This document shows, in pieces, positions 252 through 64,000 of a stretch of DNA of 64,000 nucleotides. The stretch is from Eledone cirrhosa (taxonomy: Eukaryota), in the NCBI GenBank assembly GCA_964016885.1, contig OZ024744.1, positions 123,938,001 through 124,002,000 of the forward strand. Reading direction: 5' to 3'. Position numbers and translations under genes: made by a program. Under the pieces are notes generated by a model that had not been told where the DNA came from, searched no databases, and saw only the letters and a list, made by a program, of their open reading frames with translations. How positions within the stretch are numbered: position 1 is the first letter of the stretch; each line of letters opens with the position of its first letter.

Positions 252-389
252 GGAATATGGGTGCGACAAGGAGCAATAGGTTTTATTACTGCTGTGGCTC
301 ATGTATTGAAAGTTGCAGATGTTCATTGCAACTTAATACCTCGAGTGAGAATGTTCCTAAAACAAAGTGTCCTTCATATTGACCAAAAA
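252..389 (+). CDS. PIK3R4: Internal coding exon (46 codons, phase 0) of a PIK3R4/VPS15-like phosphoinositide 3-kinase regulatory subunit 4
   Basis: Acceptor ttatatttcAG at 250-251, donor GTAAGT at 390-395. Translation GIWVRQGAIGFITAVAHVLKVADVHCNLIPRVRMFLKQSVLHIDQK resembles, from recall, vertebrate PIK3R4 '[29 protein letters not shown]...QPIIQIERK'. Joins in frame to the exon at 3681. Confidence 0.85.
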
Positions 390-713: not shown

Positions 714-716
<3 letters not shown>

Positions 717-2856: not shown

Positions 2857-2923
2857 GTAGCTGCCGTATGGCCAAATAGCTAAGAAGTTCACTTCACAAC
2901 TGTAAAGTCCCAGGTTCAAACCC
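2857..2923 (+). mobile_element. tRNA-derived SINE head (Pol III A and B boxes), truncated
   Basis: A-box-like TGGCCAAATAGC 2869-2880 and B-box GGTTCAAACC 2913-2922; no cloverleaf 3' half; ends at the (CAT)n tail of the adjacent RTE. Confidence 0.6.
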
Positions 2924-3290
2924 ATCATCATTATATCATCATCATTATTTTTACATCTACACTTGTGTGGGTTGGATGGGTCCTTCTCAGCGCAGCATCT
3001 CTCCACTTGTCCCGTTCCTTCATCATCTCCTCTGTTAGTCTCAGTAATTTGAGGTCAGCTCTCATCACCACCCAGGTCTTTGGTCTACCTCTACTGCGAT
3101 TTCCTGACACTTCTTCACCTATCAGTCACCATCCATACACATCACATGTCCAAACCAACTCAGTTTTCTCTCCTACACACCACCTCAGATTCCTCTTAAA
3201 CCCAGCTTCTCCCTCAGTTCATCCAAGCTCTGCCTTTCTCTCACATTTACATTGCTCATCCAATGAAGCATGATTACTTCATTTCTCTCT
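2924..3290 (-). mobile_element. RTE-clade LINE 3' end, decayed
   Basis: Minus-strand translation ERNEVIMLHWMSNVNVRERQSLDELREKLGLRGI*GGV*ERKLSWFGHVMCMD..VKKC..VE/RGRPKTW..DLKLL..ERDKWR matches the RTE ORF C-terminus (RLRWFGHV, GRP..TW); several stops; (TGA)n-type tail at 2924-2945. Confidence 0.85.
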
Positions 3291-3292
3291 AG

Positions 3293-3355
3293 ACATACAT
3301 ATACACACACACATATCTCTCTCTCTCTATATATATATATATACTACATATATAT
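3293..3355. repeat. Compound (AC)n/(CT)n/(AT)n microsatellite
   Basis: acatacatatacacacacacatatctctctctctctatatatatatatat seen directly. Confidence 0.9.
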
Positions 3356-3680
3356 CATTACCATATAACATTGTCATTGTGACCACAGTGAAATATTCCT
3401 GACAAAGTCTCTCTACAATTCATTATTTTCCATTGCGCTAGGCAACTGCTCCCTACTCACGTTTGTTTGATATTTTATGCTAAACCATTACAAGATGTTA
3501 AGAGATAATACTACAAATTTTCACAACAATCTGTCCACTAGTAAAGATACTATAAACATTTGAAATAACAAACCTGTTTGTAGATATTTTCTGCTAAATG
3601 TTACAGGTGAAACATGACTTTTCATAATTTTTGTAAACCTTATTTTGTCTGTGTGTTTTTTTGTTTGTTTGTCTTTCCAG

Positions 3681-3857
3681 CATATTCTGTTAAACTGTGT
3701 TGGAGAATCAGTACCTCGAGCTGTGTTTGATTACGTGGTTCGATCACCCAACGTTGATGGTATATATGATGTTTTATTGAAAGGTAGTGAGAATCGTAAA
3801 ACTATGAGACGAGGACATAAATCATTGTATCCCGATTTAGATGAAATTATGTCCCCA
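3681..3857 (+). CDS. PIK3R4: Internal coding exon (59 codons, phase 0) of PIK3R4/VPS15-like gene
   Basis: Acceptor ttccAG 3679-3680, donor GTAAGT 3858-3863. HILLNCVGESVPRAVFDYVVRSPNVDGIYDVLL.. resembles recalled PIK3R4 '[32 protein letters not shown]', which directly follows the segment matched by the first exon. Confidence 0.85.
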
Positions 3858-3892
3858 GTAAGTATTTATGCCAACTTTCCTAACAGCAATTA

Positions 3893-4206
3893 TTTGGGGA
3901 GGGTCATGTTGTCCTAATATTGCCCCAAAATAATAAAAAACACTCCCTGTTTGGGGAGGGTCATGTTGTCCTAATATTGTCCCAAAGTAGTAAAACACAC
4001 TCCCTGTTTGGGGAGGGTCATGTTATCCTAATATTGTCCCAAAATAATAAAAACACTCCGTTTGAGGAGGGTCATGTTGTCCTAATATTGTCCCAAAATA
4101 ATAAAAACACTCCCTGTTTGGGGAGGGTCATGTTCTAATATTGTCCCAAAGTAGTAAAACACACTCCCTGTTTGGGGAGGGTCATATTGTCCTACTATTG
4201 TCCCAA
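3893..4206. repeat. 54-57-bp minisatellite, ~5.5 copies
   Basis: Unit tttggggagggtcatgttgtcctaatattgtcccaaa(a/g)ta(a/g)taaaa(c)acactccctg starting at 3893, 3950, 4007, 4061, 4117 and 4171. Confidence 0.95.
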
Positions 4207-4277
4207 TAGTCTGTAATAACTTGTCCAACCCATGTATGTAGGACAATAGTCTGTAATCACTTGTCCAGCCCATGTAT
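4204..4277. repeat. First ~2 monomers of the 40/41-bp satellite, cut off from the main array by the LINE
   Basis: caatagtctgtaataacttgtccaacccatgtatgtaggacaatagtctgtaatcacttgtccagcccatgtat matches the array consensus. Confidence 0.95.
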
Positions 4278-5444
4278 AATAATGATAATAATGAAAATAT
4301 TGTGGACAGTGCTCAGGTGCACTACAACTCATCAAAAGTGTATGTATAGTACATAGGGTAATGTACAAACGTCAGGAAAATGAACAGTGCATGAGTCATG
4401 ATATATACATGTGTGTATGTGTATGGAAGGGGGACATGAGGTGTAGTTTGGGCGAATTTCGGGAAGCATGAGGGTTTTAAAGGATGCAGTGTCTCGTCAG
4501 CTAACAACTGATGCAGACAGTTTGTTCCATGCTTCAGCAACTCTAAGCGTGAAAAAATGTTTCCGAAAGACATGGGAACTGTGCTGTTCTCTGATTTTGT
4601 AGGTATGTCTACGTCTGTTAGACACATGGAGATCAAAAAGGTGCTCAGTGTTGTTGTTAGCGAGATGGTTGATAACTTTGATGGTTAATAACTTTGTGGG
4701 TCTGTTGCCAGACGTCGGAGCTTCAATGAATCCATGCCCAGGGAAGCAAGGCGTTCAGAGTATGGTAGGTGTCTGATGGAGGGTATGCGGTTGGTTGGAC
4801 GTCTCTGAACAGTTTCCAGGAGGTCAATGTTCTGAGCAAGATAGGGGTTCCAGACTGATGATGCGGATTCCAAGTGTGGTCGTACCATAGCTGTATACAG
4901 CTTTAAATAGATGGCTGGAGAGCGGCTAACAAAGGTCTTGCTGAGTGATACCAACACATTCTCGGCCTTCTTGACAATCTTAGAGACATGCTTTGTCCAA
5001 CGCAAATCGCTGCTGACAGTAATGCCCAGGTCACGTTCACAAGAGCACTTCTTGATATCAGTATTGTGGAGGGAGTAAGTAGACGCAGGATTTTTCCTCC
5101 CAAAATGCATGGTGGTACACTTGTCCACAGCTAGCTTCAGTTGCCAGTCTGTGATCCAATGCTGCATTGTGTCCAGGTCTGATTGTAGGAAAGCGTTGTA
5201 GATTTCAGGATCAGTCCTTTTGATTTCAAGGTACAGCTTGATGTCATCTGCATATTTCAGTACCGTGGCTTTCTTTAAGTTGGCAGCTATGTCATTAATA
5301 TATGCCGCAAACAAAAGGGTACCAAGAACAGATGATATCTCATATGGTGAAGAATGCTGTCCTAGAACCGTGACTACTTTTTTCGGCTGAGTATGAAGGA
5401 TTTCAACCAGTTAAAAAGATCATCCCTTACACCCATTGCAGAGA
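4278..5444 (-). mobile_element. 5'-truncated CR1-clade non-LTR retrotransposon (RT C-terminal part, 3' UTR and (ATT)n-like tail), degenerate
   Basis: ORF 4685-5314(-) has YINDI, YADD, WQL.LAVDKC, ERDLGI, LY.AMVRPHLE.ASSVWNP, LE.VQRR, L.YSERL motifs typical of CR1 RT. Upstream SVLGTLLF is present but the GVPQG motif is missing and stops occur. Tail aataatgataataat at 4278-4292. Flanked by GTAT at 4274-4277 and 5445-5448. Confidence 0.9.
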
Positions 5445-8400
5445 GTATGTAGGACAATAGTGTGTAATAACTTGTCCAACACATGACAGGTAGGACAATG
5501 GTCTGTAATAACTTGTCCAACCCATGCCAGGTAGGACAATAGGCTGTAATAACTTGTCCAACCCATGTATGTAGGACGATAGTCTGTAATAACTTGTCTC
5601 GCCCATTACAGGTAGGACAATAGTCTGTAATAACTTGTCCAAGCCATGACAGGTAGGGCAATAGTCTGTTATAACTTGTCCAACCCATGACAGGTAGGAC
5701 AATAGTCTGTAATAACTTGTCCAACCCATGACAGGTAGGACAATAGTCTGTAATAACTTGTCCTAACCCATGTATGTAGGACAATAGTCTGTAATAACTT
5801 GTCCAACCCATGTATGTAGGACAATAGTCTGTAATAACTTGTCCAAGCCATGCCAGGTAGGATAATAGTCTGTAATAACTTGTCTAACCCATGTATGTAG
5901 GACAATAGTCTGTAATAACTTGTCCAACCCATGTATGGAGGACAATAGTCTGTAATAACTTGTCTAGCCAATGTATGGAGGACAATAGTCTGTAATAACT
6001 TGTCCAACCCATGGATGTAGGACAATAGTCTGTAATAATTTGTCCAACCCATGTATGTAGGACAATAGTCTGTAATAACTTGTCCAACCCATGTATGTAG
6101 GACAATAGTCTGTAATAACTTGTCTAGCCCATGTATGTAGGACAATAGTCTGTAATAACTTATCCAACCCATGTATGTAGGACAATAGTCTGTAATAACT
6201 TGTCCAACCCATGACAGGTAGGACAATAGTCTGTAATAACTTGTCCAACCCATGTATGTAGGACAATAGTCTGTAATAACTTGTCCAACCCATTTATGTT
6301 GGACAATAGTCTGTAATAACTTGTCCAACCCATGTATGTTGGACAATAGTCTGTAATAACTTGTCCAACCCATGACAGGTAGGACAATAGTCTGTAATAA
6401 CTTGTCCGACCCATGCCATGTAGGACAATAGTCTGTAATAACTTGTCCAACCCATGACAGGTAGGACAATAGTCTGTAATAACTTGTCCAACCCATGCCA
6501 GGTAGGACAAAGTCTGTAATAACTTGTCCAACCCATGACAGGTAGGACAATAGTCTGCAATAACTTGTCCAACCCATGTATGTAGGACAATAGTCTGTAA
6601 TAAGTTGTCCAACCCATGTATGTAGGACAATAGTCTGTAATAACTTGTCCTACCCATGACAGGTAGGACAATAGTCTGTAATAACTTGTCCAACCCATGT
6701 ATGTTGGACAATAGTCTGTAATAACTTGTCCAACCCACGACAGGCAGGACAATAGTCTGTAATTACTTGTCCAACCCATGTATGTAGCACAATAGTCTGT
6801 AATATCTTGTCCAACCCATGACAGGTAGGACAATAGTCTGTAATAACTTCTCCAACCCATGTATGTAGGACAATAGTCTGTAATAACTTGTCCAACCCAT
6901 GCCAGCTAGAACAATAGTCTGTAATAACTTGTCCAACCCATGTATGTAGGACAATAGTCTGTAATAACTTGTCCAACCCATGTATGTAGGACAATAGTCT
7001 GTAATAACTTGTCCAACCCATATATGTAGCACAATAGTCTGTAATATCTTGTCCAACCCATGACAGGTAGGACAATAGTCTGTAATAACTTGTCCAACCC
7101 ATGCCAGGTAGGACAATAGTCTGTAATAACTTGTCCAACCCATGACGGGTAGGACAATAGTCTGTAATATCTTGTCCAACCCATGACATGTAGGACAATA
7201 GTCTGTAATAACTTGTCCAACCAATGCCAGGTAGGACAATAGTCTGTAATAACTTGTCCAACCCATGTATGTAGGACAATAGTCTGTAATAACTTGTCCA
7301 ACCCATGACAGGTAGGACAATAGTCTGTAATAACTTGTCCAACCCATGCCAGGTAGGACAATAGTCTGTAATAACTTGTCCAACCCATGACGGGTAGGAC
7401 AATAGTCTGTAATAACTTGTCCAACCCATGTATGTAGGACAATAGTCTGTAATAACTTGTCCAACCCATGTATGTAGCACAATAGTCTGTAATATCTTCT
7501 CCAACCCATGACAGGTAGGACAATAGTCTGTAATAACTTGTCCAACCCATGTCAGGTAGGACAATAGTCTGTAGTAACTTGCCCAACCCATGTATGTAGG
7601 ACAATAGTCTGTAATAACTTGTCCAACCCATGACAGGTAGGACAATAGTCTGTAATAACTTGTCCAACCCATGTATGTAGGACAATAGTCTGTAATAACT
7701 TGTCCAACCCATGCCAGCTAGGACAATAGTCTGTAATAACTTGTCCAACCCATGTATGTAGGACAATAGTCTGTAATAACTTGTCCAACCCATGTATGTA
7801 GGACAATAGTCTGTAATAACTTGTCCAACCCATGAGAGGTAGGACAATAGTCTGTAATAACTTGTCCAACCCATGTATGTAGGACAATAGTCTGTCATAA
7901 CGTGTCCAACCCATGACAGGTAGGACAATAGTCTGTAATAACCTGTCCAACCCATGACAGGTAGGACAATAGTCTGTAATAATTTGTCCAACCCATGTAT
8001 GTAGGACAATAGTCTGTAATAACTTGTCCAACCCATGTATGTAGTACAATAGTCTATAATAACTTGTCCAACCCATGTATGTAGGACAATAGTCTGTAAT
8101 AACTTGTCCAACCCATGTATGTAGGACAATAGTCTGTAATAACTTGTCCAACCCATGTATGTAGGACAATAGTCTGTAATAACTTGTCCAACCCATGTAT
8201 GTAGGACAATAGTCTGTAATAACTTGTCCAACCCATGACAGGTAGGACAATAGTCTGTAATAACTTGTCCAACCCATGACAGGCAGGACAATAGTCTGTA
8301 ATAACTTGTCCAACCCATGTATGTAGGACAATAGTCTGTAATAACTTGCCCAACCCATGTATGTAGGACAATAGTCTCTAATAACTTGTCCAACCCATGT

Positions 8401-11400
8401 ATGTAGGACAATAGTCTGTAATAACTTGTCCAACCCATGCCAGGTAGGACAATAGTCTGTAATAACTTGTCCAACCCATGCCAGGTAGGACAATAGTCTG
8501 TAATAACTTGTCCAACCCATGTATGTAGGACAATAGTCTGTAATAACTTGTCCAACCCATGTATGTAGGACAATAGTCTGTAATAACTTGTCCAACCCAT
8601 GACAGGCAGGACAATAGTCTGTAATAACTTGTCCAACCCATGTATGTAGGACAATAGTCTGTAATAACTTGTCCAACCCATGTATGTAGGACAATAGTCT
8701 GTAATAACTTGTCCAACCCATGTATGTAGGACAATAGTCTGTAATAACTTGTCCAACCCATGTATGTAGGACAATAGTCTGTAATAACTTGTCCAACCCA
8801 TGACAGGTAGGACAATAGTCTGTAATAACTTGTCCAACCCATGACAGGCAGGACAATAGTCTGTAATAACTTGTCCAACCCATGTATGTAGGACAATAGT
8901 CTGTAATAACTTGCCCAACCCATGTATGTAGGACAATAGTCTCTAATAACTTGTCCAACCCATGTATGTAGGACAATAGTCTGTAATAACTTGTCCAACC
9001 CATGCCAGGTAGGACAATAGTCTGTAATAACTTGTCCAACCCATGCCAGGTAGGACAATAGTCTGTAATAACTTGTCCAACCCATGTATGTAGGACAATA
9101 GTCTGTAATAACTTGTCCAACCCATGTATGTAGGACAATAGTCTGTAATAACTTGTCCAACCCATGACAGGCAGGACAATAGTCTGTAATAACTTGTCCA
9201 ACCCATGTATGTAGGACAATAGTCTGTAATAACTTGCCCAACCCATGTATGTAGCACAATAGTCTGTAATATCTTGTCCAACCCATGACAGGTAGGACAA
9301 TAGTCTGTAATAATTTGTCCAACCCATGCCAGGTAGGACAATAGTCTGTAATAACTTGTCCAACCCATGTATGTAACACAATAGGCTGTAATATCTTGTC
9401 CAACCCATGACAGGTAGGACAATAGTCTGTAATAACTTGTCCAACCCATGCCAGGTAGGACAATAGTCTGTAATAACTTGTCCAACCCATGACAGGTAGG
9501 ACAATAGTCTGTAATAACTTGTCCAACCCATGTATGTAGGACAATAGTCTGTAATAACTTGTCCAACCCATGACAGGTAGGACAATAGTCTGTAATAACT
9601 TGTCCAACCCATGACAGGTAGGACAATAGTCTGTAATAACTTGTCCAACCCATGTATGTAGGACAATAGTCTGTAATAACTTGTCCAACCCATGTATGTA
9701 GGACAATAGTCTGTAATAACTTGTCCAACCCATGCCAGGTAGGACAATAGTCTGTAATAACTTGTCCAACCCATGACAGGTAGGACAATAGTCTGTAATA
9801 ACTTGTCCAACCCATGTATGTAGGACAATAGTCTGTAATAACTTGTCCAACCCATGTATGTAGCACAATAGTCTGTAATATCTTGTCCAACCCATGACAG
9901 GTAGGACAATAGTCTGTAATAATTTGTCCAGCCCATGCCAGGTAGGACAATAGTCTTTAATAACTTGTCCAACCCATGTATGTAACACAATAGGCTGTAA
10001 TATCTTGTCCAACCCATGACAGGTAGGACAATAGTCTGCAATAACTTGTCCAACCCATGCCAGGTAGGACAATAGTCTGTAATAACTTGTCCAACCCATG
10101 TATGTAGGACAATAGTCTGTAATAACTTGTCCAACCCATGACAGGTAGGACAATAGTCTGTAATAACTTGTCCAACCCATGACAGGTAGGACAATAGTCT
10201 GTAATAACTTGTCCAACCCATGTATGTAGGACAATAGTCTGTAATAACTTGTCCAACCCATATATGTAGCACAATAGTCTGTAATATCTTCTCCAACCCA
10301 TGACAGGTAGGACAATAGTCTGTAATAACTTGTCCAACCCATGTCAGGTAGGACAATAGTCTGTAATAACTTGTCCAACCCATGACAGGTAGGACAATAG
10401 TCTGTAATAACTTCTCCAACCCATGTATGAAGGACAATAGTCTGTAATAACTTGTCCAACCCATGCCAGCTAGGACAATAGTCTGTAATAACTTGTCCAA
10501 CCCATGTATGTAGGACAATAGTCTGTAATAACTTGTCCAATCCATGTATGTAGGACAATAGTCTGTAATAACTGTCCAACCCATGTATGTAGGACAATAG
10601 TCTGTAATAACGTGTCCAACCCATGACAGGTAGGATAATAGTCTGTAATAACTTGTCCAACCCATGCCAGGTAGGACAATAGTCTGTAATAACTTGTCCA
10701 ACCCATGTATGTAGGACAATAGCCTGTAATAACTTGTCCAACCCATGACAGGTAGGACAATAGTCTATAATAACTTGTCCAACCCATGCTAGGTAGTACA
10801 ATAGTCTATAATAACTTGTCCAACCCATGTATGTAGGACAATAGTCTGTAGTAACTTGTCCAACCCATGTATGTAGGACAATAGTCTGTAATAACTTGTC
10901 CAACCCATGACAGGTAGGACAATAGTCTGTAATAACTTGTCCAACCCATGACAGGTAGGAAAATAGTCTGTAATAACTTGTCCAACCCATGACAGGTAGG
11001 AAAATAGTCTGTAATAACTTGTCCAACCCATGTATGTAGGACAATAGTCTGTAATAACTTGTCCAACCCATGTATGTAGGACAATAGTCTGTAATAACTT
11101 GTCCAACCCATGACAGGTAGGACAATAGTCTGTAATAACTTGTCCAACCCATGACAGGTAGGAAAATAGTCTGTAATAACTTGTCCAACCCATGCTAGGT
11201 AGTACAATAGTCTATAATAACTTGTCCAACCCATGTGTGTAGGACAATAGTCTGTAATAACTTGTCCAACCCATGTATGTAGGACAATAGTCTGTAATAA
11301 CTTGCCCAACCCATGTATGTAGGACAATAGTCTGTAATAACTTGTCCAACCCATGTATGTAGGACAATAGTCTGTAATAACTTGTCCAACCCATGCCAGG

Positions 11401-14400
11401 TAGGACAATAGTCTGTAATAACTTGTCCAACCCATGTATGTAGGACAATAGTCTGTAATAACTTGTCCAACCCATGCCAGGTTGAACAATAGTCTGTAAT
11501 AACTTGTCCAGCCCATGCCAGGTAGGACAATAGTCTGTAATAACTTGTCCAACCCATGACTGGTAGGACAATAGTCTGTAATAACTTGTCCAACCCATGT
11601 ATGTAGGACAATAGTCTGTAATAACTTGTCCAACCCATGACAGGTAGGGCAATAGTCTGTAATAACTTGTCCAACACATGTATGTAGGACAATAGTCTGT
11701 AATAACTTGTCCAACCCATGTATGTAGGACAATAGTCTGTAATAACTTCTCCAACCCATGTATGTAGCACAATAGTCTGTAATATCTTGTCCAACCCATG
11801 ACAGGTAGGACAATAGTCTGTAATAACTTGTCCAACCCATGCCAGGTAGGACAATAGTCTGTAATAACTTGTCCAACCCATGTATGTAGGACAATAGTCT
11901 GTAATATCTTGTCCAACCCATGACAGGGAGGACAATAGTCTGTAATAACTTGTCCAACCCATGCCAGGTAGGACAATAGTCTGTAATAACTTGTCCAACC
12001 CATGTATGTAGGACAATAGTCTGCAATAACTTGTCCAACCCATGACGGGTAGGACAATAGTCTGTAATATCTTGTCCAACCCATGTATGTAGGACAATAG
12101 TCTGTAATAACATGTCTAACCCATGACAGGTAGGACAATAGTCTGTAATAACTTGTCCAACCCATGTATGTAGGACAATAGTCTGTAATAACTTATCCAA
12201 CCCATGTATGTAGGACAATAGTCTGTAATAACTTGTCCAACTCATGTATGTAGGACAATAGTCTGTAATAACTTGTCCAACCCATGACAGGTAGGGCAAT
12301 AGTCTGTAATAACTTGTCCAACCCATGTATGTAGGACAATAGTCTGTAATAACTTGTCCAACCTATGACAGGTAGGTCAATAGTCTGTAATAACTAGTCC
12401 AACCCATGCCAGGTAGGACAATAGTCTGTAATAACTTGTCCAACCCATGACAGGTAGGACAATAGTCTGTAATAACTTGTCCAACCCATGACAGGTAGGA
12501 CAACAGTCTGTAATAACTTGTCCAACCCATGACAGGTAGGACAATAGTCTGTAATAACTTGTCCAACCCATGACAGGTAGGACAATAGTCTGTAATAACT
12601 TGTCCTACCCATGACAGGTAGGACAATAGTCTGTAATAACTTGTCCAAGCCATGACAGGTAGGACAATAGTCCGTAATAGCTTGTCCAACCCATGAATGT
12701 AGGACAATAGTCTGTAATAACTTGTCCAACCCATGACAGGTAGGACAATAGTCTGTAATAACTTGTCCAACCCATGTATGTAGGACAATAGTCTGTAATA
12801 ACTTGTCCAACCCATGACAGGTAGGACAATAGTCTGTAATAATTTGTCTCGCCCATGAAAGGTAGGACAATAGTCTGTAATAACTTGTCCAACCCATGTA
12901 TGTAGGACAATACTCTGAAATAACTTGTCCAACCCATGTATGTAGGACAATAGTCTGTAATAACTTGTCCAACCCATGTATGTAGGACAATAGTCTATAA
13001 TAACTTGTCTAACCCATGACAGGTAGGACAATAGTCTGTAGTAACTTGTCCAACCCATGTATGTAGGACAATAGTCTGTAATAATTTGTCTCGCCCATGA
13101 CAGGTAGTACAATAGTCTGTAATAACTTGTCCAACCCATGTATGTAGGACAATAGTCTGTAATAACTCGTCCAACCCATGTATGTAGGACAATAGTCTGT
13201 AATAACTTGTCTCGCCCTTGACAGGTAGGACAATAGTCTGTAGTAACTTGTCCAACCAATGACAGGTAGGGCAATAGTCTTTAATAACTTGTCCAACCCA
13301 TGTATGTAGGACAATAGTCTGTAATAACTTGTCCAACCCATGTATGTAGGACAAAGTCTGTAATAACTTGTCCAACCCATGACAGGTAGGACAATAGTCT
13401 GCAATAACTTGTCCAACCCATGTATGTAGAACAATAGTCTGTAATAACTTGTCCAACCCATGACAGGTAGGACAATAGTCTGTAATAACTTGTCCAACCC
13501 ATGACAGGTAGGACAATAGTCTGTAATAACTTGTCCAACCCATGACAGGTAGGACAATAGTCTGTAATAACTTGTCCAACCCATGACACGTAAGACGATA
13601 GTCTGTAATAACTTATCCAACCCATGACAGGTAGGACAATAGTCTGTAATAACTTGTCCAACCCATGTATGTAGAACAATAGTCTGTAATAACTTGTCCA
13701 ACCCATGACAGGTAGGACAATAGTCTGTAATAATTTGTCCAACCCATGTATGTAGAACAATAGTCTGTAATAACTTGTCCAACCCATGACAGGTAAGACA
13801 ATAGTCTGTAATAACTTATCCAACCCATGACAGGTAGGACAATAGTCTGTAATAACTTGTCCAACCCATGACAGGTAAGACAATAGTCTGTAATAACTTG
13901 TCCAACCCATGACAGGTAGGACAATAGTCTGTAATAACTTGTCCAAACCATGACAGGTAGGAAATAGTCTGTAATAACGTGTCCAACCCATGCCAGGTAG
14001 GACAATAGTCTGTAATAACTTGTCCAACCCATGACAGGTAAGACAATAGTCTGTAATAACTTGTCCAACCCATGACAGGTAGGACAATAGTCTGTAATAA
14101 CTTGTCCAAACCATGACAGGTAGGAAATAGTCTGTAATAACTTGTCCAACCCATGACAGGTAGGACAATAGTCTGTAATAACTTGTCCAACCCATGACAG
14201 GTAGGACAATAGTCTGTAATAATTTGTCCAACCCATGACAGGTAAGACAATAGTCTGTAATAATTTATCCAACCCATGACAGGTAGGACAATAGTCTGTA
14301 ATAACTTGTCCAACCCATGTATGTAGAACAATAGTCTGTAATAACTTGTACAACCCATGACAGGTAGGACAATACTCTGTAATACCTCGTCCAACCCGTG

Positions 14401-17400
14401 ACAGGTAGGACAATAGTCTGTAATAACTTGTCCAACCCATGACAGGTAGGACAATAGTCTGTAATAACATGTCCAACCCATGTATATAGGACAATAGTCT
14501 GTAATAACTTGTCCAACCCATGTATTTAGGACAATAGTCTGTAATAAGTTGTCCAACCCATGTATATAGGACGATAGTCTGTAATAACTTGTCCAACCCA
14601 TGTATGTAGGACAATAGTCTGTAATAACTTGTCCAACCCATGACAGGTAGGTCAATCGTCTGTAATAACTTGTCCAACCCATGATAGGTAAGACAATAGT
14701 CTGTAATAACTTGTCCAACCCATGACATGTAGGACAATAGTCTGTAATAACTTGTCCAACCCATGTATGTAGGACAATAGTCTGTAATAACTTGTCCAAC
14801 CCATGACAGGTAGGACGATAGTCTGTAATAACTTGTCCAACCCATGTATGTAGGACAATAGTCTGTAATAACTTGTCCAACCCATGACAGGTAGGACAAT
14901 AGTCTGTAATAACTTGTCCAACCCATGTATGTAGGACAATAGTCTGTAATAACTTGTCCAACCCATGACAGGTAGGACAATAGTCTGTACTAACTTGTCC
15001 AACCCATGACAGGTATGACAATAGTCTGTAATAACTTGTCAAACCCATGACAGGTAGGACAATAGTCTGTAATAACTTGTCCAACCAATGAGAGGTAGGA
15101 CAACAGTTTGTAATAACTTGTCCAACCCATGACAGGTAGGACAATAGTCTGTAATAGCTTGTCCAACCAATGAGAGGTAGGACAATAGTTTGTAATAACT
15201 TGTCCAACCCATGACAAGTAGGACAATAGTCTGTAATACCTTGTCCAACCAATGACAGGTAGGACAATAGTCTGTAATAACTTGTTCAACCCATGTATGT
15301 AGGACAATAGTCTGTAATAACTTGTCCAACCCATTACAGGTAGGACAATAGTCTGTAATAACTTGTCCTACCCATGACAGGTAGGACAATAGTCTGTAAT
15401 AACTTGTCCAACCCATGACAGCTAGGACAATAGTCTGTAATAGCTTGTCCAACCCATGACAGGTAGGACAATAGTCTGTAATAACTTGTCCAACCCATGA
15501 CATGTAGGACAATAGTCTGTAATAACTTGTCCAACCCATGACAGGTAGGACAATAGTCTGTAATACCTCGTGCAACCTATGACAAGTGGGACAATAGTCT
15601 GTAATAACTTGTCCAACCCATGACAGGTAGGACAATAGTCTGTAATAACATGTCCAACCCATGTATATAGGACAATAGTCTGTAATAACTTGTCCAACCC
15701 ATGTATGTAGGACAATAGTCTGTATTAATTTGTCCAACCCATGTATGTGGGACAATAGTCTGTAATAACTTGTCCAACCCATGACAGGTAGGACAATAGT
15801 TTGTAATATCTTGTCCAACCCATGTATGTAGGACAATAGTCTGTAATAATTTGTCGAACCCATGCCAGGTAGGACAATAGTCTGTAATAACTTGTCCAAC
15901 CCATGTATGTAACACAATAGTCTGTAATAACTTGTCCAACCCATGACAGGTAGGACAATAGTCTGTAATAACTTGTCCAAACCATGACAGGTAGGGCAAT
16001 AGTCTGTAATAACTTGTCCAACCCATGACAGATAGGACAATAGTGTGTAATACCTCGTCCAACCCATGACAGGTAGGACAACAGTCTGTAATAACTTGTC
16101 CAACCCATGTATATAGGACAATAGTCTGTAATAACTTGTCCAACCCATGTATGTAGGACAATAGTCTGTAATAACTTGTCCAACCCATGTATGTAGGACA
16201 ATAGTCTGTAATAACTTGTCTCGCCCATGACAGGTAGGACAATAGTCTGTAATAACTTGTCCAACCCATGTATGTAGGACAAAAGTCTGTAATAACTTGT
16301 CTCGCCCTTGACATGTAGGACAATAGTCTGTAATAACTTCTCCAACCCATGACAGATAGGACAATAGTCTGTAATAACTTGTCCAACCATTGACAGGTAG
16401 GACAATAGTCTGTAATAACTTGTCCAACCCATGACAGGTAGGACAATAGTCTGTAATAACTTGTCCAACCCATGACAGGTAGGACAATAGTCTGTAATAA
16501 CTTGTCCAACCCATGTATGTAGGACAATAGTCTGTAATAACTTGTCCAACCCATGTATGTAGGATAATAGTCTGTAATAACTTGTCCAACCCATGACAGG
16601 TAGGATAATAGTCTGTAATAACTTGTCCAACCCATGACAGGTAGGACAATAGTCTGTAATAACTTGTCCAACCCATGTATGTAGAACAATAGTCTGTAAT
16701 AACTTGTCCAACCCATGACAAGTAGGACAATAGTCTGTAGTAACTTGTCCAACCCATGACAGGTAGGACAATAGTCTGTAATAACTTGTCCAACCCATGA
16801 CAGGTAGGACAATAGTCTGTAATAACTTGTCCAACCCATGTATGTAGAACAATAGTCTGTAATAACTTGTCCAACCCATGACAAGTAGGACAATAGTCTG
16901 TAATAACTTGTCCAACCCATGACAGGTAGGACAATAGTCTGTAATAACTTGTCCAACCCATGACAGGTAGGACAATAGTCTGTAATAATTTGTCCATCCC
17001 ATGTATGTAGGACAATAGTCTGTAATAACTTGTCGAACCCATGACAGGTAGGACTATAGTCTGTAATAACTTGTCCAACCCATGACAGGTAAGACAATAG
17101 TTTGTAATAACTTATCCAACCCATGACAGGTAGGACAATAGTCTGTAATAACTTGTCCAACCCATGCCAGGTAGGACAATAGTCTGTAATAACTTGTCTA
17201 ACCCATGACAGGTAAGACAATAGTCTGTAATAACTTGTCCAACGCATGACAGGTAGGACAATAGTCTGTAATAACTTGTCCAACCCATGACAGGTAGGAA
17301 ATAGTCTGTAATAACTTGTCCAACCCATGACAGGTAGGACAATAGTTTGTAATAACTTGTCCACCCCATGACAGGTAGGACAATAGTCTGTTATAACTTG

Positions 17401-53400: not shown

Positions 53401-56400
53401 CAACCCATGTATGTAGGACACTAGTCTGTAATAACTTGTCTCGCCCATGACAGGTAGGACAATAGTCTGTAATAACCTGTCCAACCCATGTATGTAGGAC
53501 AATAGTCTGTATTAACTTGTCTCGCCCTTGACATATAGGACAATAGTCTGTAATAACTTGTCCAACCCATGACAGATAGGACAATAGTCTGTAATAACTT
53601 GGCCAACCCTTGACACGTAGGACAATAGTCTGTAATAACTTGTCCAACCCATGACAGGTAGGACAATAGTCTGTAATAACTTGTCCAACCCATGACAGGT
53701 AGGACAATAGTCTGTAATAACTTGTCCAACCCATGTATGTAGGACAATAGTCTGTAATAACTTGTCCAACCCATGTATGGAGGACAATAGTCTGTAATAA
53801 CTTGTCCAACCCATGTATGTAGCATAATAGTCTGTAATAACTTGTCCAACCAATGACAGGTAGGGCAATAGTCTGTAATAACTTGTCCAACCCATGACAG
53901 GTAGGACAATAGTCTGTAATAACTTGGCCAACCCATGACAGGTAGGACAATAGTCAGTAATAACTTGTCCAACCCATGACAGGTAGGACAATAGTCTGTA
54001 ATAACTTGTCCAACCCATGTATGTAGGACAATAGTCTGTAATAACTTGTCCAACCCATGTATGGAGGACAATTGTCTGTAATAACTTGTCCAACCCATGT
54101 ATGTAGGATAATAGTCTGTAATAACTTGTCCAACCAATGACAGGTAGGGCAATAGTCTGTAATAACTTGTCCAACCCATGACAGGTAGGACAATAGTCTG
54201 TAATAACTTGTCCAACCCATGACAGGTAGGACGATAGTCTGTAATAACTTGTCCAACCCATGTATGTAGGACAATAGTCTGTAATAACTTCTCCAACCCA
54301 TGTATGGAGGACAATAGTCTGTAATAACTTGTCCAACCCATGACAGGTAGGACGATAGTCTGTAATAACTTGTCCAACCCATGTATGTAGGACAATAGTC
54401 TGTAATAACTTGTCCAGCCCATGTAGGTAGGATAATAGTCTGTAATAACTTGTCCAACCAATGACAGGTAGGGCAATAGTCTGTAATAACTTGTCCAACC
54501 CATGTATGTAGGACAATAGTCTGTAATAACTTGTTCAACCCATGTATGTAGGACAATAGTCTGTAATAACTTGTCTCGCCCTTGACATGTAGGACAATAG
54601 TCTGTAATAACTTGTCCAACCCATGACAGATAGGACAATAGTCTGTAATAACTTGTCCAACCCATGACAGGTAGGACAATAGTCTGTAATAACTTGTCCA
54701 ACCCATGACAGGTAGGACAATAGTCTGTAATAACTTGTCCAACCCATGTATGTAGGACAATAGTCTGTAATAACTTGTCCAACCCATGTATGGAGGACAA
54801 TAGTCTGTAATAACTTGTCCAACCCATGTATGTAGGATAATAGTCTGTAATAACTTATCCAACCCATGACAGGTAGGACAATAGTCTGTAATAGCTTGTG
54901 CAACCCATGACAGGTAAGACAATAGTCTGTAATAACTTATCCAACCCATGATAGGTAGGACAATAGTCTGTAATAACTTGTCCAACCCATGACAGGTAAG
55001 ACAATAGTCTGTAATAACTTGTCCAACCCATGCCAGGTAGGACAATAGTCTGTAATAACTTGTCCAACCCATGACAGGTAAGACAATAGTCTGTAATAAC
55101 TTGTCCAACCCATGATAGGTAGGAAATAGTCTGTAATAGCTTGTCCAACCCATCTATATAGGACAATAATCTGTAATAACTTGTCCAGCCCATGACAGGT
55201 AGGACAATAGTCTGTAATAACTTGTCCAACCCATGACAGGTAGGGCAATAGTCTGTAATAACTTGTCCAACCCATGACAGGTAGGGCAATAGTCTGTAAT
55301 AACTTGTCCAACCCATGACAGGTAGGGCAATAGTCTGTAATAACTTGTCCAACCCATGTATGTAGGACAATAGTCTGTAATAACTTGTCTCGCCCATGAC
55401 AGGTAGGACAATAGTCTGTAATAACTTGTCTCGCCCTTGACATGTAGGACAATAGTCTGTAATAACTTCTCCAACCCATGACAGATAGGACAATAGTCTG
55501 TAATAACTTGTCCAACCCTTGACAGGTAGGACAATAGTCTGTAATAACTTGTCCAACGCATGACAGGTAGGACAATAATCTGTAATAACTTGTCCAACCC
55601 ATGTATGTAGTATAATAGTCTGTAATAACTTGTCCAACCCATGTATGATGGACAATTGTCTGTAATAACTTGTCCAACCCATGTATGTAGGATAATAGTC
55701 TGTAATAACTTGTCCAACCCATGACAGGTAGGATAATAGTCTGTAATAACTTGTCCAAGCCATGACAGGTAGGACAATAGTCTGTAATAACTTGTCCAAC
55801 CCATGTATGTAGGACAGTAGTCTGTAATAACTTGTCCAACCCATGACAGATAGGACAATAGTCTGTAATAACTTGTCCAACCCATGACAGGTAGGACAAT
55901 AGTCTGTAATAACTTGTCCAACCCATGACAGGTAAGACAATAGTCTGTAATAACTTGTTAACCCATGACAGGTAAGACAATAGTCTGTAATAACTTGTCC
56001 AACGCATGACAGGTAGGACAATAGTCTGTAATAACTTGTCCAACCCATGACAGGTAGGAAATAGTCTGTAATAACTTGTCCAACCCATGACAGGTAGGAC
56101 AATAGTTTGTAATAACTTGTCCAACCCATGACAGGTAGGACAATAGTCTGTTATAACTTGTCCAACCCATGTATGTAGGACAATAGTCTATAATAACTTG
56201 TCCAACCCATGTATATAGGACGATAGTCTGTAATAACTTGTCCAACCCATGTATGTAGGACAATAGTCTGTAATAACTTGTCCAACCCATGTATATAGGA
56301 CGATAGTCTGTAATAACTTATCCAACCCATGACAGGTAGGACAATAGTCTGTAATAACTTGTCCAACGCATGACAGGTAGGACAATAGTCTGTAATAACT

Positions 56401-59400
56401 TGCCCAACCCATGACAGGTAGGACAATAGTCTGTAATAACTTGTCCAACCCATGTATATAGGACGATAGTCTGTAATAACTTATCCAACCCATGTATATA
56501 GGACGATAGTCTGTAATAACTTGTCCAACCCATGACAGGTAGGACAATAGTCTGTAACACCTTGTCCAACCCATGACAGGTAGGACAATAGTCTGTAATA
56601 ACTTGTCCAACCCATGATAGGTAGGACAATAGTCTGTAATAACTCGTCCAACCCATGTATGTAGGACAATAGTCTGTAATAACTTGTCCAACCCATGACA
56701 GGTAAGACAATATTCTGTAATAACTTGTCCAACCCATGACAGGTAGGACAATAGTCTGTAATAACTCGTCCAACCCATGTATGTAGGACAATAGTCTGTA
56801 ATAACTTGTCCAACCCATGACAGGTAAGACAATAGTCTGTAATAACTTGTCCAACCCATGCCAGGTAGGACAATAGTCTGTAATAACTCGTCTAACCCAT
56901 GTATGTAGGACAATTGTCTGTAATAACTTGTCCAACCCATGAAAGGTAGGACAATAGTCTGTAGTAACTTGTCCAACCCATGTATGTAGGACAATAGTCT
57001 GTAATAACTTGTCCAACCCATAACAGGTAGGACTATAGTCTGTAATAACTTGTCCAACCCATGACAGGTAGGACAATAGTCTGTAATAGCTTGTCCAACC
57101 CATGACAGGTAAGACAATAGTCTGTAATAACTTATCCAACCCATGACAGGTAGGACAATAGTCTGTAATAACTTGTCCAACCCATGACAGGTAGGACTAT
57201 AGTCTGTAATAACTTGTCCAACCCATGACAGGTAGGACAATAGTCTGTAATAACTTGTCCAACCCATGACAGGTAAGACAATAGTCTGTAATAACTTGTT
57301 AACCCATGACAGGTAAGACAATAGTCTGTAATAATTGTCCAACGCATGACAGGTAGGACAATAGTCTGTAATAACTTGTCCAACCCATGACAGGTAGGAA
57401 ATAGTCTGTAATAACTTGTCCAACCCATGACAGGTAGGACAATAGTTTGTAATAACTTGTCCAACCCATGACAGGTAGGACAATAGTCTGTTATAACTTG
57501 TCCAACCCATGTATGTAGGACAATAGTCTATAATAACTTGTCCAACCCATGTATATAGGACGATAGTCTGTAATAACTTGTCCAACCCATGTATGTAGGA
57601 CAATAGTCTGTAATAACTTGTCCAACCCATGTATATAGGACGATAGTCTGTAATAACTTATCCAACCCATGACAGGTAGGACAATAGTCTGTAATAACTT
57701 GTCCAACGCATGACAGGTAGGACAATAGTCTGTAATAACTTGTCCAACCCATGTATATAGGACGATAGTCTGTAATAACTTATCCAACCCATGTATATAG
57801 GACGATAGTCTGTAATAACTTGTCCAACCCATGACAGGTAGGACAATAGTCTGTAACACCTTGTCCAACCCATGACAGGTAGGACAATAGTCTGTAATAA
57901 CTTGTCCAACCCATGATAGGTAGGACAATAGTCTGTAATAACTCGTCCAACCCATGTATGTAGGACAATAGTCTGTAATAACTTGTCCAACCCATGACAG
58001 GTAAGACAATATTCTGTAATAACTTGTCCAACCCATGACAGGTAGGACAATAGTCTGTAATAACTCGTCCAACCCATGTATGTAGGACAATAGTCTGTAA
58101 TAACTTGTCCAACCCATGACAGGTAAGACAATAGTCTGTAATAACTTGTCCAACCCATGCCAGGTAGGACAATAGTCTGTAATAACTCGTCTAACCCATG
58201 TATGTAGGACAATAGTCTGTAATAACTTGTCCAACCCATGAAAGGTAGGACAATAGTCTGTAGTAACTTGTCCAACCCATGTATGTAGGACAATAGTCTG
58301 TAATAACTTGTCCAACCCATAACAGGTAGGACTATAGTCTGTAATAACTTGTCCAACCCATGACAGGTAGGACAATAGTCTGTAATAGCTTGTCCAACCC
58401 ATGACACGTAAGACAATAGTCTGTAATAACTTATCCAACCCATGACAGGTAGGACAATAGTCTGTAATAACTTGTCCAACCCATGACAGGTAGGACAATA
58501 GTCTGTAATAACTTGTCCAACCCATGTATATAGGACAATAGTCTGTAATAACTTGTCCAACCCATGTATGTAGGACAATTGTCTGTAATAACTTGTCCAA
58601 CCCATGTATGTAGGACAATAGTCTGTAATAACTTGTCCAACCCATGACAGGTAGGGCAATAGTCTGTAATAACTTGTCCAACCCATGTATGTAGGACACT
58701 AGTCTGTAATAACTTGTCTCGCCCATGACAGGTAGGACAATAGTCTGTAATAACCTGTCCAACCCATGTATGTAGGACAATAGTCTGTATTAACTTGTCT
58801 CGCCCTTGACATATAGGACAATAGTCTGTAATACTTGTCCAACCCATGACAGATAGGACAATAGTCTGTAATAACTTGGCCAACCCTTGACACGTAGGAC
58901 AATAGTCTGTAATAACTTGTCCAACTCATGACAGGTAGGACAATAGTCTGTAATAACTTGTCCAACCCATGACAGGTAGGACAATAGTCTGTAATAACTT
59001 GTCCAACCCATGTATGTAGGACAATAGTCTGTAATAACTTGTCCAACCCATGTATGGAGGACAATAATCTGTAATAACTTGTCCAACCCATGTATGTAGG
59101 ATAATAGTCTGTAATAACTTGTCCAACCCATGACAGGTAGGACAATAGTCTGTAATAACTTGTCCAACCCATGTATGTAGAACAATAGTCTGTAATAACT
59201 TGTCCAACCCATGACAGGTAAGATAATAGTCTGTAATAACTTGTCCAACCCATGCCAGGTAGGACAATAGTCTGTAATAACTTGTCCAACCCATGACAGG
59301 TAAGACAATAGTCTGTAATAACTTGTCCAACCCATGACAGGTAGGAAATAGTCTGTAATAACTTGTCCAACCCATCTATATAGGACAATAGTCTGTAATA

Positions 59401-62400
59401 ACTTGTCCAGCCCATGACAGGTAGGACAATAGTCTGTAATAACTTGTCCAACCCATGACAGGTAGGGCAATAGTCTATAATAACTTGTCCAACCCATGAC
59501 AGGTAGGGCAATAGTCTGTAATAACTTGTCCAACCCATGACAGGTAGGGCAATAGTCTGTAATAACTTGTCCAACCCATGTATGTAGGACAATAGTCTGT
59601 AATAACTTGTCTCGCCCTTGACATGTAGGACAATAGTCTGTAATAACTTGTCCAACCCATGACAGATAGGACAATAGTCTGTAATAACTTTTCCAACCCT
59701 TGACAGGTAGGACAATAGTCTGTAATAACTTGTCCAACCCATGACAGGTAGGACAATAGTCTGTAATAACTTGTCCAACCCATGTATGTAGGACAATAGT
59801 CTGTAATAACTTGTCCAACCCATGTATGGAGGACAATAGTCTGTAATAACTTGTCCAACCCATGTATGTAGGATAATAGTCTGTAATAACTTGTCCAACC
59901 AATGACAGGTAGGGCAATAGTCTGTAATAACTTGTCCAAACCATGTATGTAGGACAATAGTCTGTAATAACTTGTCCAACCCATGTATGTAGGACAAAGT
60001 CTGTAATAACTTGTCCAACCCATGACAGGTAGGATAATAGTCTGTAATAACTTGTCCAACCCATGACAGGTAGGACAATAGTCTGTAATAACTTGTCCAA
60101 CCCATGTATGTAGAACAATAGTCTGTAATAACTTGTCGAACCCATGACAGGTAGGACAATAGTCTGTAATAACTTGTCCAACCCATGACAGGTAGGACAA
60201 TAGTCTGTAATAACTTGTCCAACCCATGACAGGTAGGACAATAGTCTGTAATAACTCGTCCAACCCATGTATATAGGACAATAGTCTGTAATAACTTGTC
60301 CAACCCATGTATGTAGGACAATAGTATGTAATAACTTGTCCAACCCATGACAGGTAGGACAATAGTCTGTAATAACTTGTCCAACCCATGTATGTAGGAC
60401 AATAGTCTGTAATAACTTGTCCAACCCATGACAGGTAGGACTATAGTCTGTAATAACTTGTCCAACCCATGACACGTAGGACAATAGTCTGTAATAGCTT
60501 GTCCAACCCATGACAGGTAAGACAATAGTCTGTAATAACTTATCCAACCCATGACAGGTAGGACAATAGTCTGTAATAACTTGTCCAACCCATGACAGGT
60601 AAGACAATAGTCTGTAATAACTTGTACAACCCATGCCAGGTAGGACAATAGTCTGTAATAACTTGTCCAACCCATGACAGGTAAGACAATAGTCTGTAAT
60701 AACTTGTCCAACCCATGACAGGTAGGACAATAGTCTGTAATAACTTGTCCAACCCATGACAGGTAGGAAATAGTCTGTAATAACTTGTCCAACCCCTGTA
60801 TATAGGACAATAGTCTGTAATAACTTGTCCAGCCCATGACAGGTAGGACAATAGTCTGTAATAACTTGTCCAACCCATGCCAGGTAGGACAAAGTCTGTA
60901 AACACTTGTCCAACCCATGACAGGTAGGGCAATAGTCTGTAATAACTTGTCCAACCCTTGACAGGTAGGACAATAGTCTGTAATAACTTGTCCAACCCAT
61001 GTATGTAGGACAATAGTCTGTAATAACTTGTCCAACCCATGTATGTAGGACAATAGTCTGTAATAACTTGTCCAACACATGTATGTAGGACAATAGTCTG
61101 TAATAACTTGTCCAACCCATGACAGGTAGGACAATAGTCTGTAATAACTTGTCCAACCTATGTATGTAGGACAATAGTCTGTAATAACTTGTCCAACCCA
61201 TGTATGTAGGACAATAGTCTGTAATAACTTGTCCCACCCATGACAGGTAGGACAATAGTCTGTAATAACTTGTCCAACCCATGTATGTAGGACAATAGTC
61301 TGTAATAACTTGTCCAACCCATGACAGGTAGGATAATAGTCTGTAATAACTTGTCCAACCCATGACAGCTAGGACAATAGTCTGTAATAACTTGTCCAAC
61401 CCATGTATGTAGGACAATAGTCTGTAATAACTTGTCTCGCCCTTGACATGTAGGACAATAGTCTGTAATAACTTGTCCAACCCATGACAGATAGGACAAT
61501 AGTCTGTAATAACTTTTCCAACCCTTGACAGGTAGGACAATAGTCTGTAATAACTTGTCCATCCCATGACAGGTAGGACAATAGTCTGTAATAACTTGTC
61601 CAACCCATGTATGTAGGACAATAGTATGTAATAACTTGTCCAACCCATGTATATAGGACAATAGTCTGTAATAACTTGTCCAACCCATGACAGGTAGGAT
61701 AATAGTCTGTAATAACTTGTCCAACCCATGACAGGTAGGACAATAGTCTGTAATAACTTGTCCAACCCATGACAGCTAGGACAATAGTCTGTAATAACTT
61801 GTCCAACCCATGTATGTAGGACAATAGTCTGTAATAACTTGTCTCGCCCTTGACATGTAGGACAATAGTCTGTAATAACTTGTCCAACCCATGACAGATA
61901 GGACAATAGTCTGTAATAACTTTTCCAACCCTTGACAGGTAGGACAATAGTCTGTAATAACTTGTCCATCCCATGACAGGTAGGACAATAGTCTGTAATA
62001 ACTTGTCCAACCCATGTATGTAGGACAATAGTCTGTAATAACTTGTCCAACCCATGTATGGAGGACAATAGTCTGTAATAACTTGTCCAACCCATGTATG
62101 TAGGATAATAGTCTGTAATAACTTGTCCAACCAATGACAGGTAGGGCAATAGTCTGTAATAACTTGTCCAACCCATGTATGTAGGACAATAGTCTGTAAT
62201 AACTTGTCCAACCCATGTATGTAGGACAAAGTCTGTAATAACTTGTCCAACCCATGACAGGTAGGATAATAGTCTGTAATAACTTGTCCAACCCATGACA
62301 GGTAGGACAATAGTCTGTAATAACTTGTCCAACCCATGTATGTAGAACAATAGTCTGTAATAACTTGTCGAACCCATGACAGGTAGGACAATAGTCTGTA

Positions 62401-64000
62401 ATAACTTGTCCAACCCATGACAGGTAGGACAATAGTCTGTAATAACTTGTCCAACCCATGACAGGTAGGACAATAGTCTGTAATAACTCGTCCAACCCAT
62501 GTATATAGGACAATAGTCTGTAATAACTTGTCCAACCCATGACAGGTAGGATAATAGTCTGTAATAACTTGTCCAACCCATGACAGGTAGGACAATAGTC
62601 TGTAATAACTTGTCCAACCCATGTATGTAGGACAATAGTCTGTAATAACTTGTCCAACCCATGACAGGTAGGACTATAGTCTGTAATAACTTGTCCAACC
62701 CATGACACGTAGGACAATAGTCTGTAATAGCTTGTCCAACCCATGACAGGTAAGACAATAGTCTGTAATAACTTATCCAACCCATGACAGGTAGGACAAT
62801 AGTCTGTAATAACTTGTCCAACCCATGACAGGTAAGACAATAGTCTGTAATAACTTGTACAACCCATGCCAGGTAGGACAATAGTCTGTAATAACTTGTC
62901 CAACCCATGACAGGTAAGACAATAGTCTGTAATAACTTGTCCAACCCATGACAGGTAGGACAATAGTCTGTAATAACTTGTCCAACCCATGACAGGTAGG
63001 AAATAGTCTGTAATAACTTGTCCAACCCCTGTATATAGGACAATAGTCTGTAATAACTTGTCCAGCCCATGACAGGTAGGACAATAGTCTGTAATAACTT
63101 GTCCAACCCATGCCAGGTAGGACAAAGTCTGTAAACACTTGTCCAACCCATGACAGGTAGGGCAATAGTCTGTAATAACTTGTCCAACCCTTGACAGGTA
63201 GGACAATAGTCTGTAATAACTTGTCCAACCCATGTATGTAGGACAATAGTCTGTAATAACTTGTCCAACCCATGTATGTAGGACAATAGTCTGTAATAAC
63301 TTGTCCAACCCATGTATGTAGGACAATAGTCTGTAATAACTTGTCCAACCCATGACAGGTAGGACAATAGTCTGTAATAACTTGTCCAACCTATGTATGT
63401 AGGACAATAGTCTGTAATAACTTGTCCAACCCATGTATGTAGGACAATAGTCTGTAATAACTTGTCCCACCCATGACAGGTAGGACAATAGTCTGTAATA
63501 ACTTGTCCAACCCATGTATGTAGGACAATAGTCTGTAATAACTTGTCCAACCCATGACAGCTAGGACAATAGTCTGTAATAACTTGTCCAACCCATGTAT
63601 GTAGGACTATAGTCAGTAATAACTTGTCCAACCCATGACAGGTAGGACAATAGTCTGTAATAACTTGTCCAATCCATGACAGGTAGGACAATAGTCTGTA
63701 ATACCTTGTCCAACCAATGACAGGTAGGACAATAGTTTGTAATAACTTGTCCAACCAACGACAGGTAGGACAATAGTCTGTAATAACTTGTTCAACCCAT
63801 GTATGTAGGACAATAGTCTGTAATAACTTGTCCAACCCATGACAGGTAAGAGAATAGTCTGTAATAACTTGTCCAACCCATGTATGTAGGTCAATAGCCT
63901 GTAATAACTTGTCCAACCCATGGCAGGTAGGACAATAGTCTGTAATAAATTGTCCAACCCATGACAGGTAGGACAATAGTCTGTAATAACTTGTCCAACC
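5445..64000. repeat. Large satellite array of 40/41-bp monomers (~1,440 copies, single orientation, runs off the window end)
   Basis: Constant 37-bp core GTAGGACAATAGTCTGTAATAACTTGTCCAACCCATG followed by TAT (40 bp), ACAG (41 bp) or CCAG (41 bp); most monomers carry 0-3 differences; no unique insert seen. Copy number estimated as 58.5 kb / ~40.6 bp. Confidence 0.99.

Follow-up and report, generated by a model that had tools for sequence, protein, structure and literature searches.

The window analysed here is a 64-kb stretch (64,000 nucleotides) of the octopod Eledone cirrhosa, C28:123,938,001-124,002,000, where C28 is contig OZ024744.1 of a 3.0-Gb assembly. It carries two exons of the gene PIK3R4/VPS15 and the first 60 kb of intron 20, which is filled almost entirely by a 40/41-bp satellite. 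We searched the genome at the protein level with Octopus bimaculoides PIK3R4 (1,344 amino acids) as query, using a stricter first look, and analysed contiguous sequence around the two sets of matches obtained (1,184,000 and 820,000 bases). All 35 scored matches lie on C28, where they form copy A, on the + strand at 123.57-124.50 Mb and including the window, and copy B, on the opposite strand further along the contig. The features of the window, in window positions, are as follows.

252..389, + strand: exon 19 of PIK3R4/VPS15 (amino acids 649-694), phase 0 at both ends
3681..3857, + strand: exon 20 of PIK3R4/VPS15 (amino acids 695-753), 177 nt, phase 0 at both ends
3858..64000, + strand: first 60 kb of intron 20, the whole intron being C28:123,941,858-124,362,590 (420,733 bp, GTAAGT...TGACAG)
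3893..4206, no strand: minisatellite with a 57-bp unit (5.6 copies), situated between the donor and the start of the 41-bp satellite
4205..4276, + strand: first two 41-bp satellite units, on the exon side of a long interspersed element (LINE) fragment
4277..5448, - strand: ~1.2-kb 3' fragment of a non-LTR (long terminal repeat) retrotransposon, with an RVT_1 domain in 4688-5410 (E 2.8e-09), broken by a stop and interrupting the edge of the array
5449..64000, + strand: 40/41-bp satellite array, continuing past the window to C28:124,362,535

The spliced model of copy A comprises 34 exons with 4,035 nt of coding sequence for 1,344 amino acids, has no internal stop, and shows GT-AG boundaries at all 33 introns. 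The predicted protein aligns without gaps to that of O. bimaculoides (1,309 of 1,344 residues identical), the mismatches being spread over the parts before (14 of 753 residues) and after (21 of 591) the intron-20 array, and it is full-length and colinear with the known PIK3R4/VPS15 orthologues (kinase-like, HEAT and WD40 regions). Full-length orthologues are known in four other octopods, one of them truncated C-terminally. An earlier note, made from the letters of this stretch, had named the gene and placed the array inside an intron of it. The name is borne out by exon 19, which matches residues 669-713 of human PIK3R4 (E 7e-08) and the O. bimaculoides protein at 98%. Exon 20 on its own found no relatives in a PDB search and occurs once in the genome by DNA search; its frame is, as proposed, open up to the GTAAGT donor at 3858-3863 directly behind it. 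The next exon, which the note had wanted sought by protein search, was located at C28:124,362,591 (+). This exon 21 follows on the same contig and strand and in phase (0 to 0), and the frame remains open to the stop, which excludes the possibility that the remaining exons lie on another scaffold or strand. Nor was an intact paralogue found, of the kind that could have undercut the proposal: the 35 scored matches include no third or intronless copy, and copy B lacks three exons and is frameshifted. Judged from its sequence, copy A is the only intact PIK3R4 found in the assembly.

Copy A spans 931,019 bp, of which 4,035 bases are coding, and there is no N in the 1,184,000 bases around it. Its median intron is 4,033 bp (2,467 bp in Octopus vulgaris, according to a passage of PMC10700109), and five giant repeat-filled introns of 55,841, 135,474, 115,647, 420,733 and 84,727 bp, of which the second, third and fourth exceed 100 kb, sum to 812,422 bp, or 87% of the span. 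Elsewhere in the same genome, VPS35 occupies ~23 kb over profile positions 20-713, and seven multi-exon loci of the adaptin family span 3-92 kb, with 63 kb as the largest gap between matches. Within this small sample, copy A is an outlier in size.

The satellite of intron 20 and other arrays

Within the window, Tandem Repeats Finder reports a single array (5449-64000; period 41, 1,441.8 copies, 91% matches between neighbours), which accounts for 58.5 kb of the 60.1 kb of intron shown there. The earlier claim of an array of more than 58 kb, with no more exons in the window, is thus upheld; the intron is actually 420.7 kb, and the array truly starts at ~4205, between exon 20 and the LINE fragment at 4277-5448. 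Past this fragment, the main array runs uninterrupted for 419,087 bp at a GC content of ~0.40 and ends ~60 bp before the exon-21 acceptor; satellite makes up 99.6% of intron 20, which contains no N. There are 10,222 monomers in the main array, including 6,325 of 41 bp and 3,654 of 40 bp (the two main variants), in irregular order, and the make-up of variants drifts along its length. The description of the array as near-perfect was overstated in view of the 934 distinct monomers. Genome-wide, one exact 34-mer from the unit is present 4,519 times in forward and 354 times in reverse orientation (4,873 in total), and the copy A and copy B regions yield just these counts; the 41-bp repeat is thus private to intron 20 and its duplicate. 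With such a locus-private repeat, one RNA fluorescence in situ hybridization probe would report on intron 20 alone.

No exact repeat in the 419-kb array reaches 10 kb, and 1.2% of its 6-kb words recur, which makes the assembled length credible, though it rests on one assembly. A mis-join near 4.2-5.4 kb, which the earlier note had allowed for, is unlikely, since the LINE fragment is flanked by satellite on either side, the array stops ~60 bp short of exon 21, and copy B independently carries this satellite next to exon 21. It is very likely that, at the DNA level, a very large array connects exon 20 with exon 21. Three contig sets from one sample, compared with window positions 1-5600, were given no weight, as depth is not copy number and the runs may stem from the assembly's own sample; in these sets a 351-base contig matches exon 20 exactly, no listed piece bridges 4.2-5.4 kb, and the summed depth of the first satellite bin is ~7,000-15,000x that of the exon-20 contig. 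The unit itself (window 5449-5490) contains an imperfect inverted repeat of 9 bp that encloses a 14-base loop, as read from the sequence.

Among the 800-mers of the array 34% recur, and 99.8% of the 80,051 recurrences lie at most 20 kb apart (median 4.6 kb), which points to blocks of several units having been duplicated in tandem over short distances; at the molecular level, this would have happened by unequal exchange or slippage. With respect to origin, the last 60 bases of the array run into a motif common to dispersed elements in the same gene, and seven dispersed near-matches of the 41-bp unit in the gene region share this downstream motif, which we take to be the tail of a LINE or short interspersed element (SINE). 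Alignment of the unit with four dispersed elements yields scores of 42, 38, 35 and 34, as against a maximum of 34 in 500 shuffles; three of the four exceed that maximum, by small margins, which is a modest signal. We infer that the unit may derive from the 3' tail of a dispersed retroelement beside exon 21.

The units of the arrays differ between introns 10, 18, 20, 28 and 33. Intron 10 has an 83/90-bp unit that aligns to dispersed sequence at window 3126-3205; intron 28 has a 48-bp unit distinct from the 48-bp unit of intron 18, intron 33 one of 100 bp, and intron 12 AT-rich simple repeats. With 21,380 exact matches in the genome, singly and in other arrays (872 of them in the copy A and B regions), the intron-18 unit is a genome-wide family rather than a private one. 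Tandem repeats characterize 81% of the two-kb windows inside the gene vs 44% of the 126 outside it; as the flanks are tandem-rich too, the process of expansion appears to be regional and not aimed at PIK3R4.

Several further elements were observed in and around the gene. Outside it, a 66/69-bp array of at least 98 kb lies at C28:136.04-136.14 Mb, and others at 136.40, 124.55-124.62 and 123.47-123.53 Mb include an 80-bp unit, a 32-bp unit followed by a 16-bp one, and two of 48 bp; of these, the units of 16 and 32 bp have one strand rich in G or C and resemble telomere-like repeats. C28:136,020,001-136,023,081 and the sequence beyond it belong to a dispersed element in which an internal segment of ~220 bp close to the end is inverted; the 3,081 bases recur at 99-100% in at least 27 other places, and the element is very young. 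In the window, the regions 5' of exons 19 and 20 (1-250 and 3480-3640) contain near-identical blocks in rearranged order, with a joint recorded as 'goes back 3385', which suggests local duplication of acceptor-side intron DNA. A near-perfect inverted repeat with arms of ~55 bp followed by (AT)22 at 545-665 is typical of a small non-autonomous DNA transposon, and a 136-amino-acid open frame with its continuation (1941-2520) looks like a decayed DNA-transposon gene; the open reading frame at 1941-2348 has no Pfam match.

The broken inverted copy and the chromosomal setting

Copy B lies on the - strand at C28:135,439,600-135,992,200, within a duplicated block that covers at least 135.32-136.04 Mb, and there is no N in the 820,000 bases around it. 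It matches 31 of the 34 exons, is devoid of exons 13, 19 and 20, and carries a 2-bp deletion in exon 27 that results in a frameshift. Filler DNA replaces both exon deletions: at the gap of exons 19-20 the intron-18 array gives way to ~1.5 kb of filler and then to a 44-kb remnant of the 41-bp array, with no N between them, and copy B likewise has the 41-bp satellite against exon 21. This filler (C28:135,610,720-135,612,250) consists of four tandem units of ~390 bp each between two different satellites, and its units have no match in the copy A region.

Over 87,850 aligned intronic bases, 456 substitutions (0.52%) separate the two copies; their shared coding sequence differs by 5 in 3,637 bases where 19 are expected (P 2e-4). 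Three amino-acid changes separate the copies, all of them on B, with A keeping the O. bimaculoides residue; the A lineage accordingly has none, vs 7.3 expected per lineage (P 6e-4, equal rates assumed). The absence of change where about seven were expected indicates purifying selection on copy A since the split. The 41-bp array of copy B, whose 44 kb are a floor because the deletion cuts it, shares 2-14% of its 150-mers with that of A and differs from it in the make-up of variants. Intron 10 is 56 kb in A and 177 kb in B, and intron 28 is 85 kb in A and 78 kb in B. Differences in both directions imply fast turnover, the dead copy included, and fit neutral behaviour. Copy B, as a dead duplicate 0.5% diverged from A, gives a measure of the speed of array turnover and offers a control for change with and without selection.

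The chromosomal setting was assessed with marker families of the conserved cephalopod Z block (Table S6, from the available part of PMC10925132). All four families tested match C28: DDOST has its match on C28 only, and the SPAG9-, PRPS1- and EIF5-type families, each with paralogue matches elsewhere, lie at 59.36, 59.01 and 55.39 Mb, in the published order. These markers, 24-68 Mb distant from PIK3R4, make C28 the likely Z chromosome. PIK3R4 is not named in the available part of the supplement of that paper, and the accessible passages of 10.1101/2024.12.09.627507 and PMC13122204 contain names for the Z, no lengths and no PIK3R4. If the sequenced animal was a Z0 female, copy A would be its only intact allele. 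Off the Z, an adaptin-family gene (C4:77,206,128-77,268,841) with 63 kb between successive exon matches is a candidate for another array-filled intron.

Crossing the array and the competing explanations

Vps15-null mice die before embryonic day 7.5, as stated in a passage of PMC3779449. If essentiality is carried over from the mouse, and with copy A the only intact copy found, the polymerase must cross the array; transcription through it and the splicing of exon 20 to exon 21 would follow. Transcription proceeds at 1-3 kb per minute, at which rate one pass of the gene would take 5-15 hours. No acceptor on the sense strand of the 419-kb array outscores the lower quartile of the real acceptors in this gene, so that neither a pseudo-exon nor a recursive site is predicted; recursive splicing at the AG/GT of the unit was rejected for now on this ground. 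Both main variants of the unit carry a donor-like 9-mer in sense orientation (4,803 and 2,917 copies, with scores of 6.9 and 7.3; the 33 real donors of the gene score 4.4-13.4). Strong donors reach 1.59 per kb on the sense strand of the array and 0 on the antisense strand, and poly(A)-signal hexamers in sense number 164, or 0.39 per kb vs 1.24 in ordinary introns. Strong sense donors are missing from the arrays of introns 10, 28 and 33, the last of which has them in antisense only, and strand asymmetry of this kind also occurs in the intergenic arrays; a strand bias of splice and poly(A) motifs shared by the intronic arrays was sought in six intronic and three intergenic arrays and not found. 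Donor-like motifs can protect transcripts through U1, a mechanism known from vertebrate work; we rank such a role low because the other arrays do not share the donor pattern.

We consider it probable that intron 20 of the only intact PIK3R4 found is a 421-kb locus-private array that likely grew in place, is transcribed and spliced out, and is a neutral passenger that the gene tolerates. The unit would have arisen from the 3' tail of a dispersed retroelement adjoining exon 21, and unequal exchange or replication slippage over 2-12 kb would have enlarged the array recently. RNA polymerase II would read through it and exon 20 would be joined to exon 21, the absence of strong acceptors in the array possibly helping this joining. 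The same process, acting on other element fragments, may have inflated introns 10, 18, 28 and 33 and the surrounding DNA at the distal end of the Z. Several points weigh against this account. The length of the array is that of a single assembly, and the low sharing of 150-mers with copy B means that the bulk of the 419 kb may have arisen very recently, be untested by selection and be atypical of the species; the selection detected on copy A is an average over the time since the duplication. The essentiality of PIK3R4 is transferred from the mouse, and the 164 poly(A) hexamers and thousands of donor-like motifs could disturb processing. The retroelement origin draws on three of four alignments whose scores narrowly exceed the best shuffle, and leaves a 12-base part of the unit unaccounted for. 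Finally, the stricter first look may miss short exons of a third copy, and unassembled copies would be invisible to it.

Alternatively, the array, though truly intronic, could owe its length to the assembly process or to one extreme individual, with most animals having a much shorter intron; the reliance on one assembly leaves room for this. The 44-kb array of the same family in copy B, with its different make-up of variants, the up to threefold differences in array size between the copies and the strong length polymorphism described in the available text on an avian parallel (PMC12954441) would agree with this. We nevertheless judge it distinctly unlikely: with no N and no exact 10-kb repeat in 419 kb, long accurate reads can be uniquely ordered, the make-up of variants drifts along the array, and the deletion-cut array of copy B provides a floor. 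It is also general knowledge that assemblers collapse arrays more often than they inflate them. A role for the satellite, either through donor-like motifs that load the U1 small nuclear ribonucleoprotein and so counter premature polyadenylation, or through giant introns that govern the timing or dosage of a Z-linked gene, as has been proposed for Y-loop genes, is improbable. The sense donor-like 9-mer in both main variants, the lack of strong antisense donors and the scarcity of poly(A) hexamers are in line with recruitment; but the donor pattern is not common to the other arrays, intergenic arrays are asymmetric too, one unit sequence amounts to one observation, and the broken copy B kept and enlarged its arrays. 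Moreover, older short-read models of O. bimaculoides PIK3R4 split at intron 21, not intron 20, a weak hint that the intron that is hard to assemble differs between species.

Two further alternatives concern the status of the copies. Copy A could have been silenced or crippled recently by the expansion, the working PIK3R4 being an allele or copy absent from the assembly; the expansion does look very recent, the region is tandem-rich in the manner of heterochromatin, and the assembly shows one haplotype. This is very improbable given that neither the 4,035 coding bases nor the 66 splice sites of copy A contain a disabling change, that its lineage has no amino-acid change since the duplication, and that the scored matches include no third or intronless copy. 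Copy B, in turn, could be the other haplotype, which the assembly would have duplicated in error and placed in inverted orientation; in favour of this are an intronic divergence within the allelic range (0.52%, the range being general knowledge), a location less than 1.2 Mb from the contig end and a downstream edge of the duplication that lies beyond the sequence examined. That explanation would require a single allele of an essential gene to bear three separate disabling lesions together with three amino-acid changes. The sequence around B has no N, and at the upstream edge, where the match between the copies ends near 123.525 Mb in A and 136.036 Mb in B, copy B joins without gap an array that has no mirror near A and whose 30-mer gives 0 of 7 matches in reverse on C28. 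We regard the haplotype explanation as unlikely, and a real inverted duplicate as the more likely one; in either case, copy A stays the only intact copy.

Comparison with known systems

Giant introns filled with satellite are known mainly from testis-specific fly genes with a long developmental window and special proteins. The Drosophila Y-loop genes kl-3 and kl-5 have introns of hundreds of kb that are almost wholly tandem repeat; these genes are spermatocyte-specific, contain simple satellites, are transcribed over ~90 hours and depend on dedicated RNA-binding proteins (available passages of PMC6508621 and PMC11207136). As far as these passages go, PIK3R4 resembles them in being more than 99% non-coding (4,035 of 931,019 bases), in its repeat-filled intron (99.6% satellite in intron 20) and in its location on a sex chromosome (likely the Z). 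Unlike them, it is a housekeeping gene with units of 41-90 bp on a gene-rich Z; a germline fertility gene on a Y or W it is not, being PIK3R4 on a contig with Z-block markers. By this analogy its structure is Y-loop-like, yet it is not a Y-loop gene. It is possible, if doubtful, that the distal octopod Z makes housekeeping genes into Y-loop-like giants, whose ~800 kb of intron-specific, independently expanding repeats would be transcribed in body cells, with a general means, belonging to octopus cells or supplied by the 41-bp satellite (as dense donor-like motifs), moving polymerase and spliceosome through. If the array is indeed crossed, either ordinary transcription and splicing are able to pass ~10,000 tandem units or a general solution exists in octopods; repeat-filled introns also provide one explanation for the breakage of cephalopod gene models in short-read assemblies. 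Among titles and abstract openings, a coverage outside which most subscription journals fall, we found no report of satellite-filled introns in cephalopods.

Dystrophin likewise has several introns of more than 100 kb in one long gene, and its intron sizes are conserved between human and mouse (passage in PMC11207136), whereas in PIK3R4 a single young array fills one intron and sizes vary threefold between copies 0.5% apart. Closer in sequence organization are the SINE-derived satellites of squamates, in which part of a dispersed retroelement is amplified in tandem (as may be so here), subvariants alternate in a locus-specific manner and long loci are more homogeneous. The longest squamate loci comprise ~950-1,200 monomers, with no occurrence of the word intron in the text available (PMC10702118); in contrast, intron 20 has ~10,200 monomers, ~10x as many.

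The sequence stuttering of avian introns on dot chromosomes, tied to GC-rich genes and reported for birds and gerbils only, with exon-stuttering spans of 112-23,555 bp (available text of PMC12954441), likewise features local tandem expansions between conserved exons, a different unit per intron, involvement of neighbouring intergenic DNA and large length differences between copies. In PIK3R4 the repeat clusters are local and intron-specific, though the intron-18 unit is genome-wide, and the length variation is that of two copies in one assembly (56 vs 177 kb for intron 10). The octopod case differs in its 419 kb (~18x the longest span given in that text), its GC content of ~40% rather than a GC-rich setting, its occurrence in a mollusc and its exon edges, none of the 34 exons of copy A being copied into the neighbouring intron at the thresholds of that study. 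By analogy, avian intron stuttering would be the closest match in pattern, with SINE-derived satellites also comparable.

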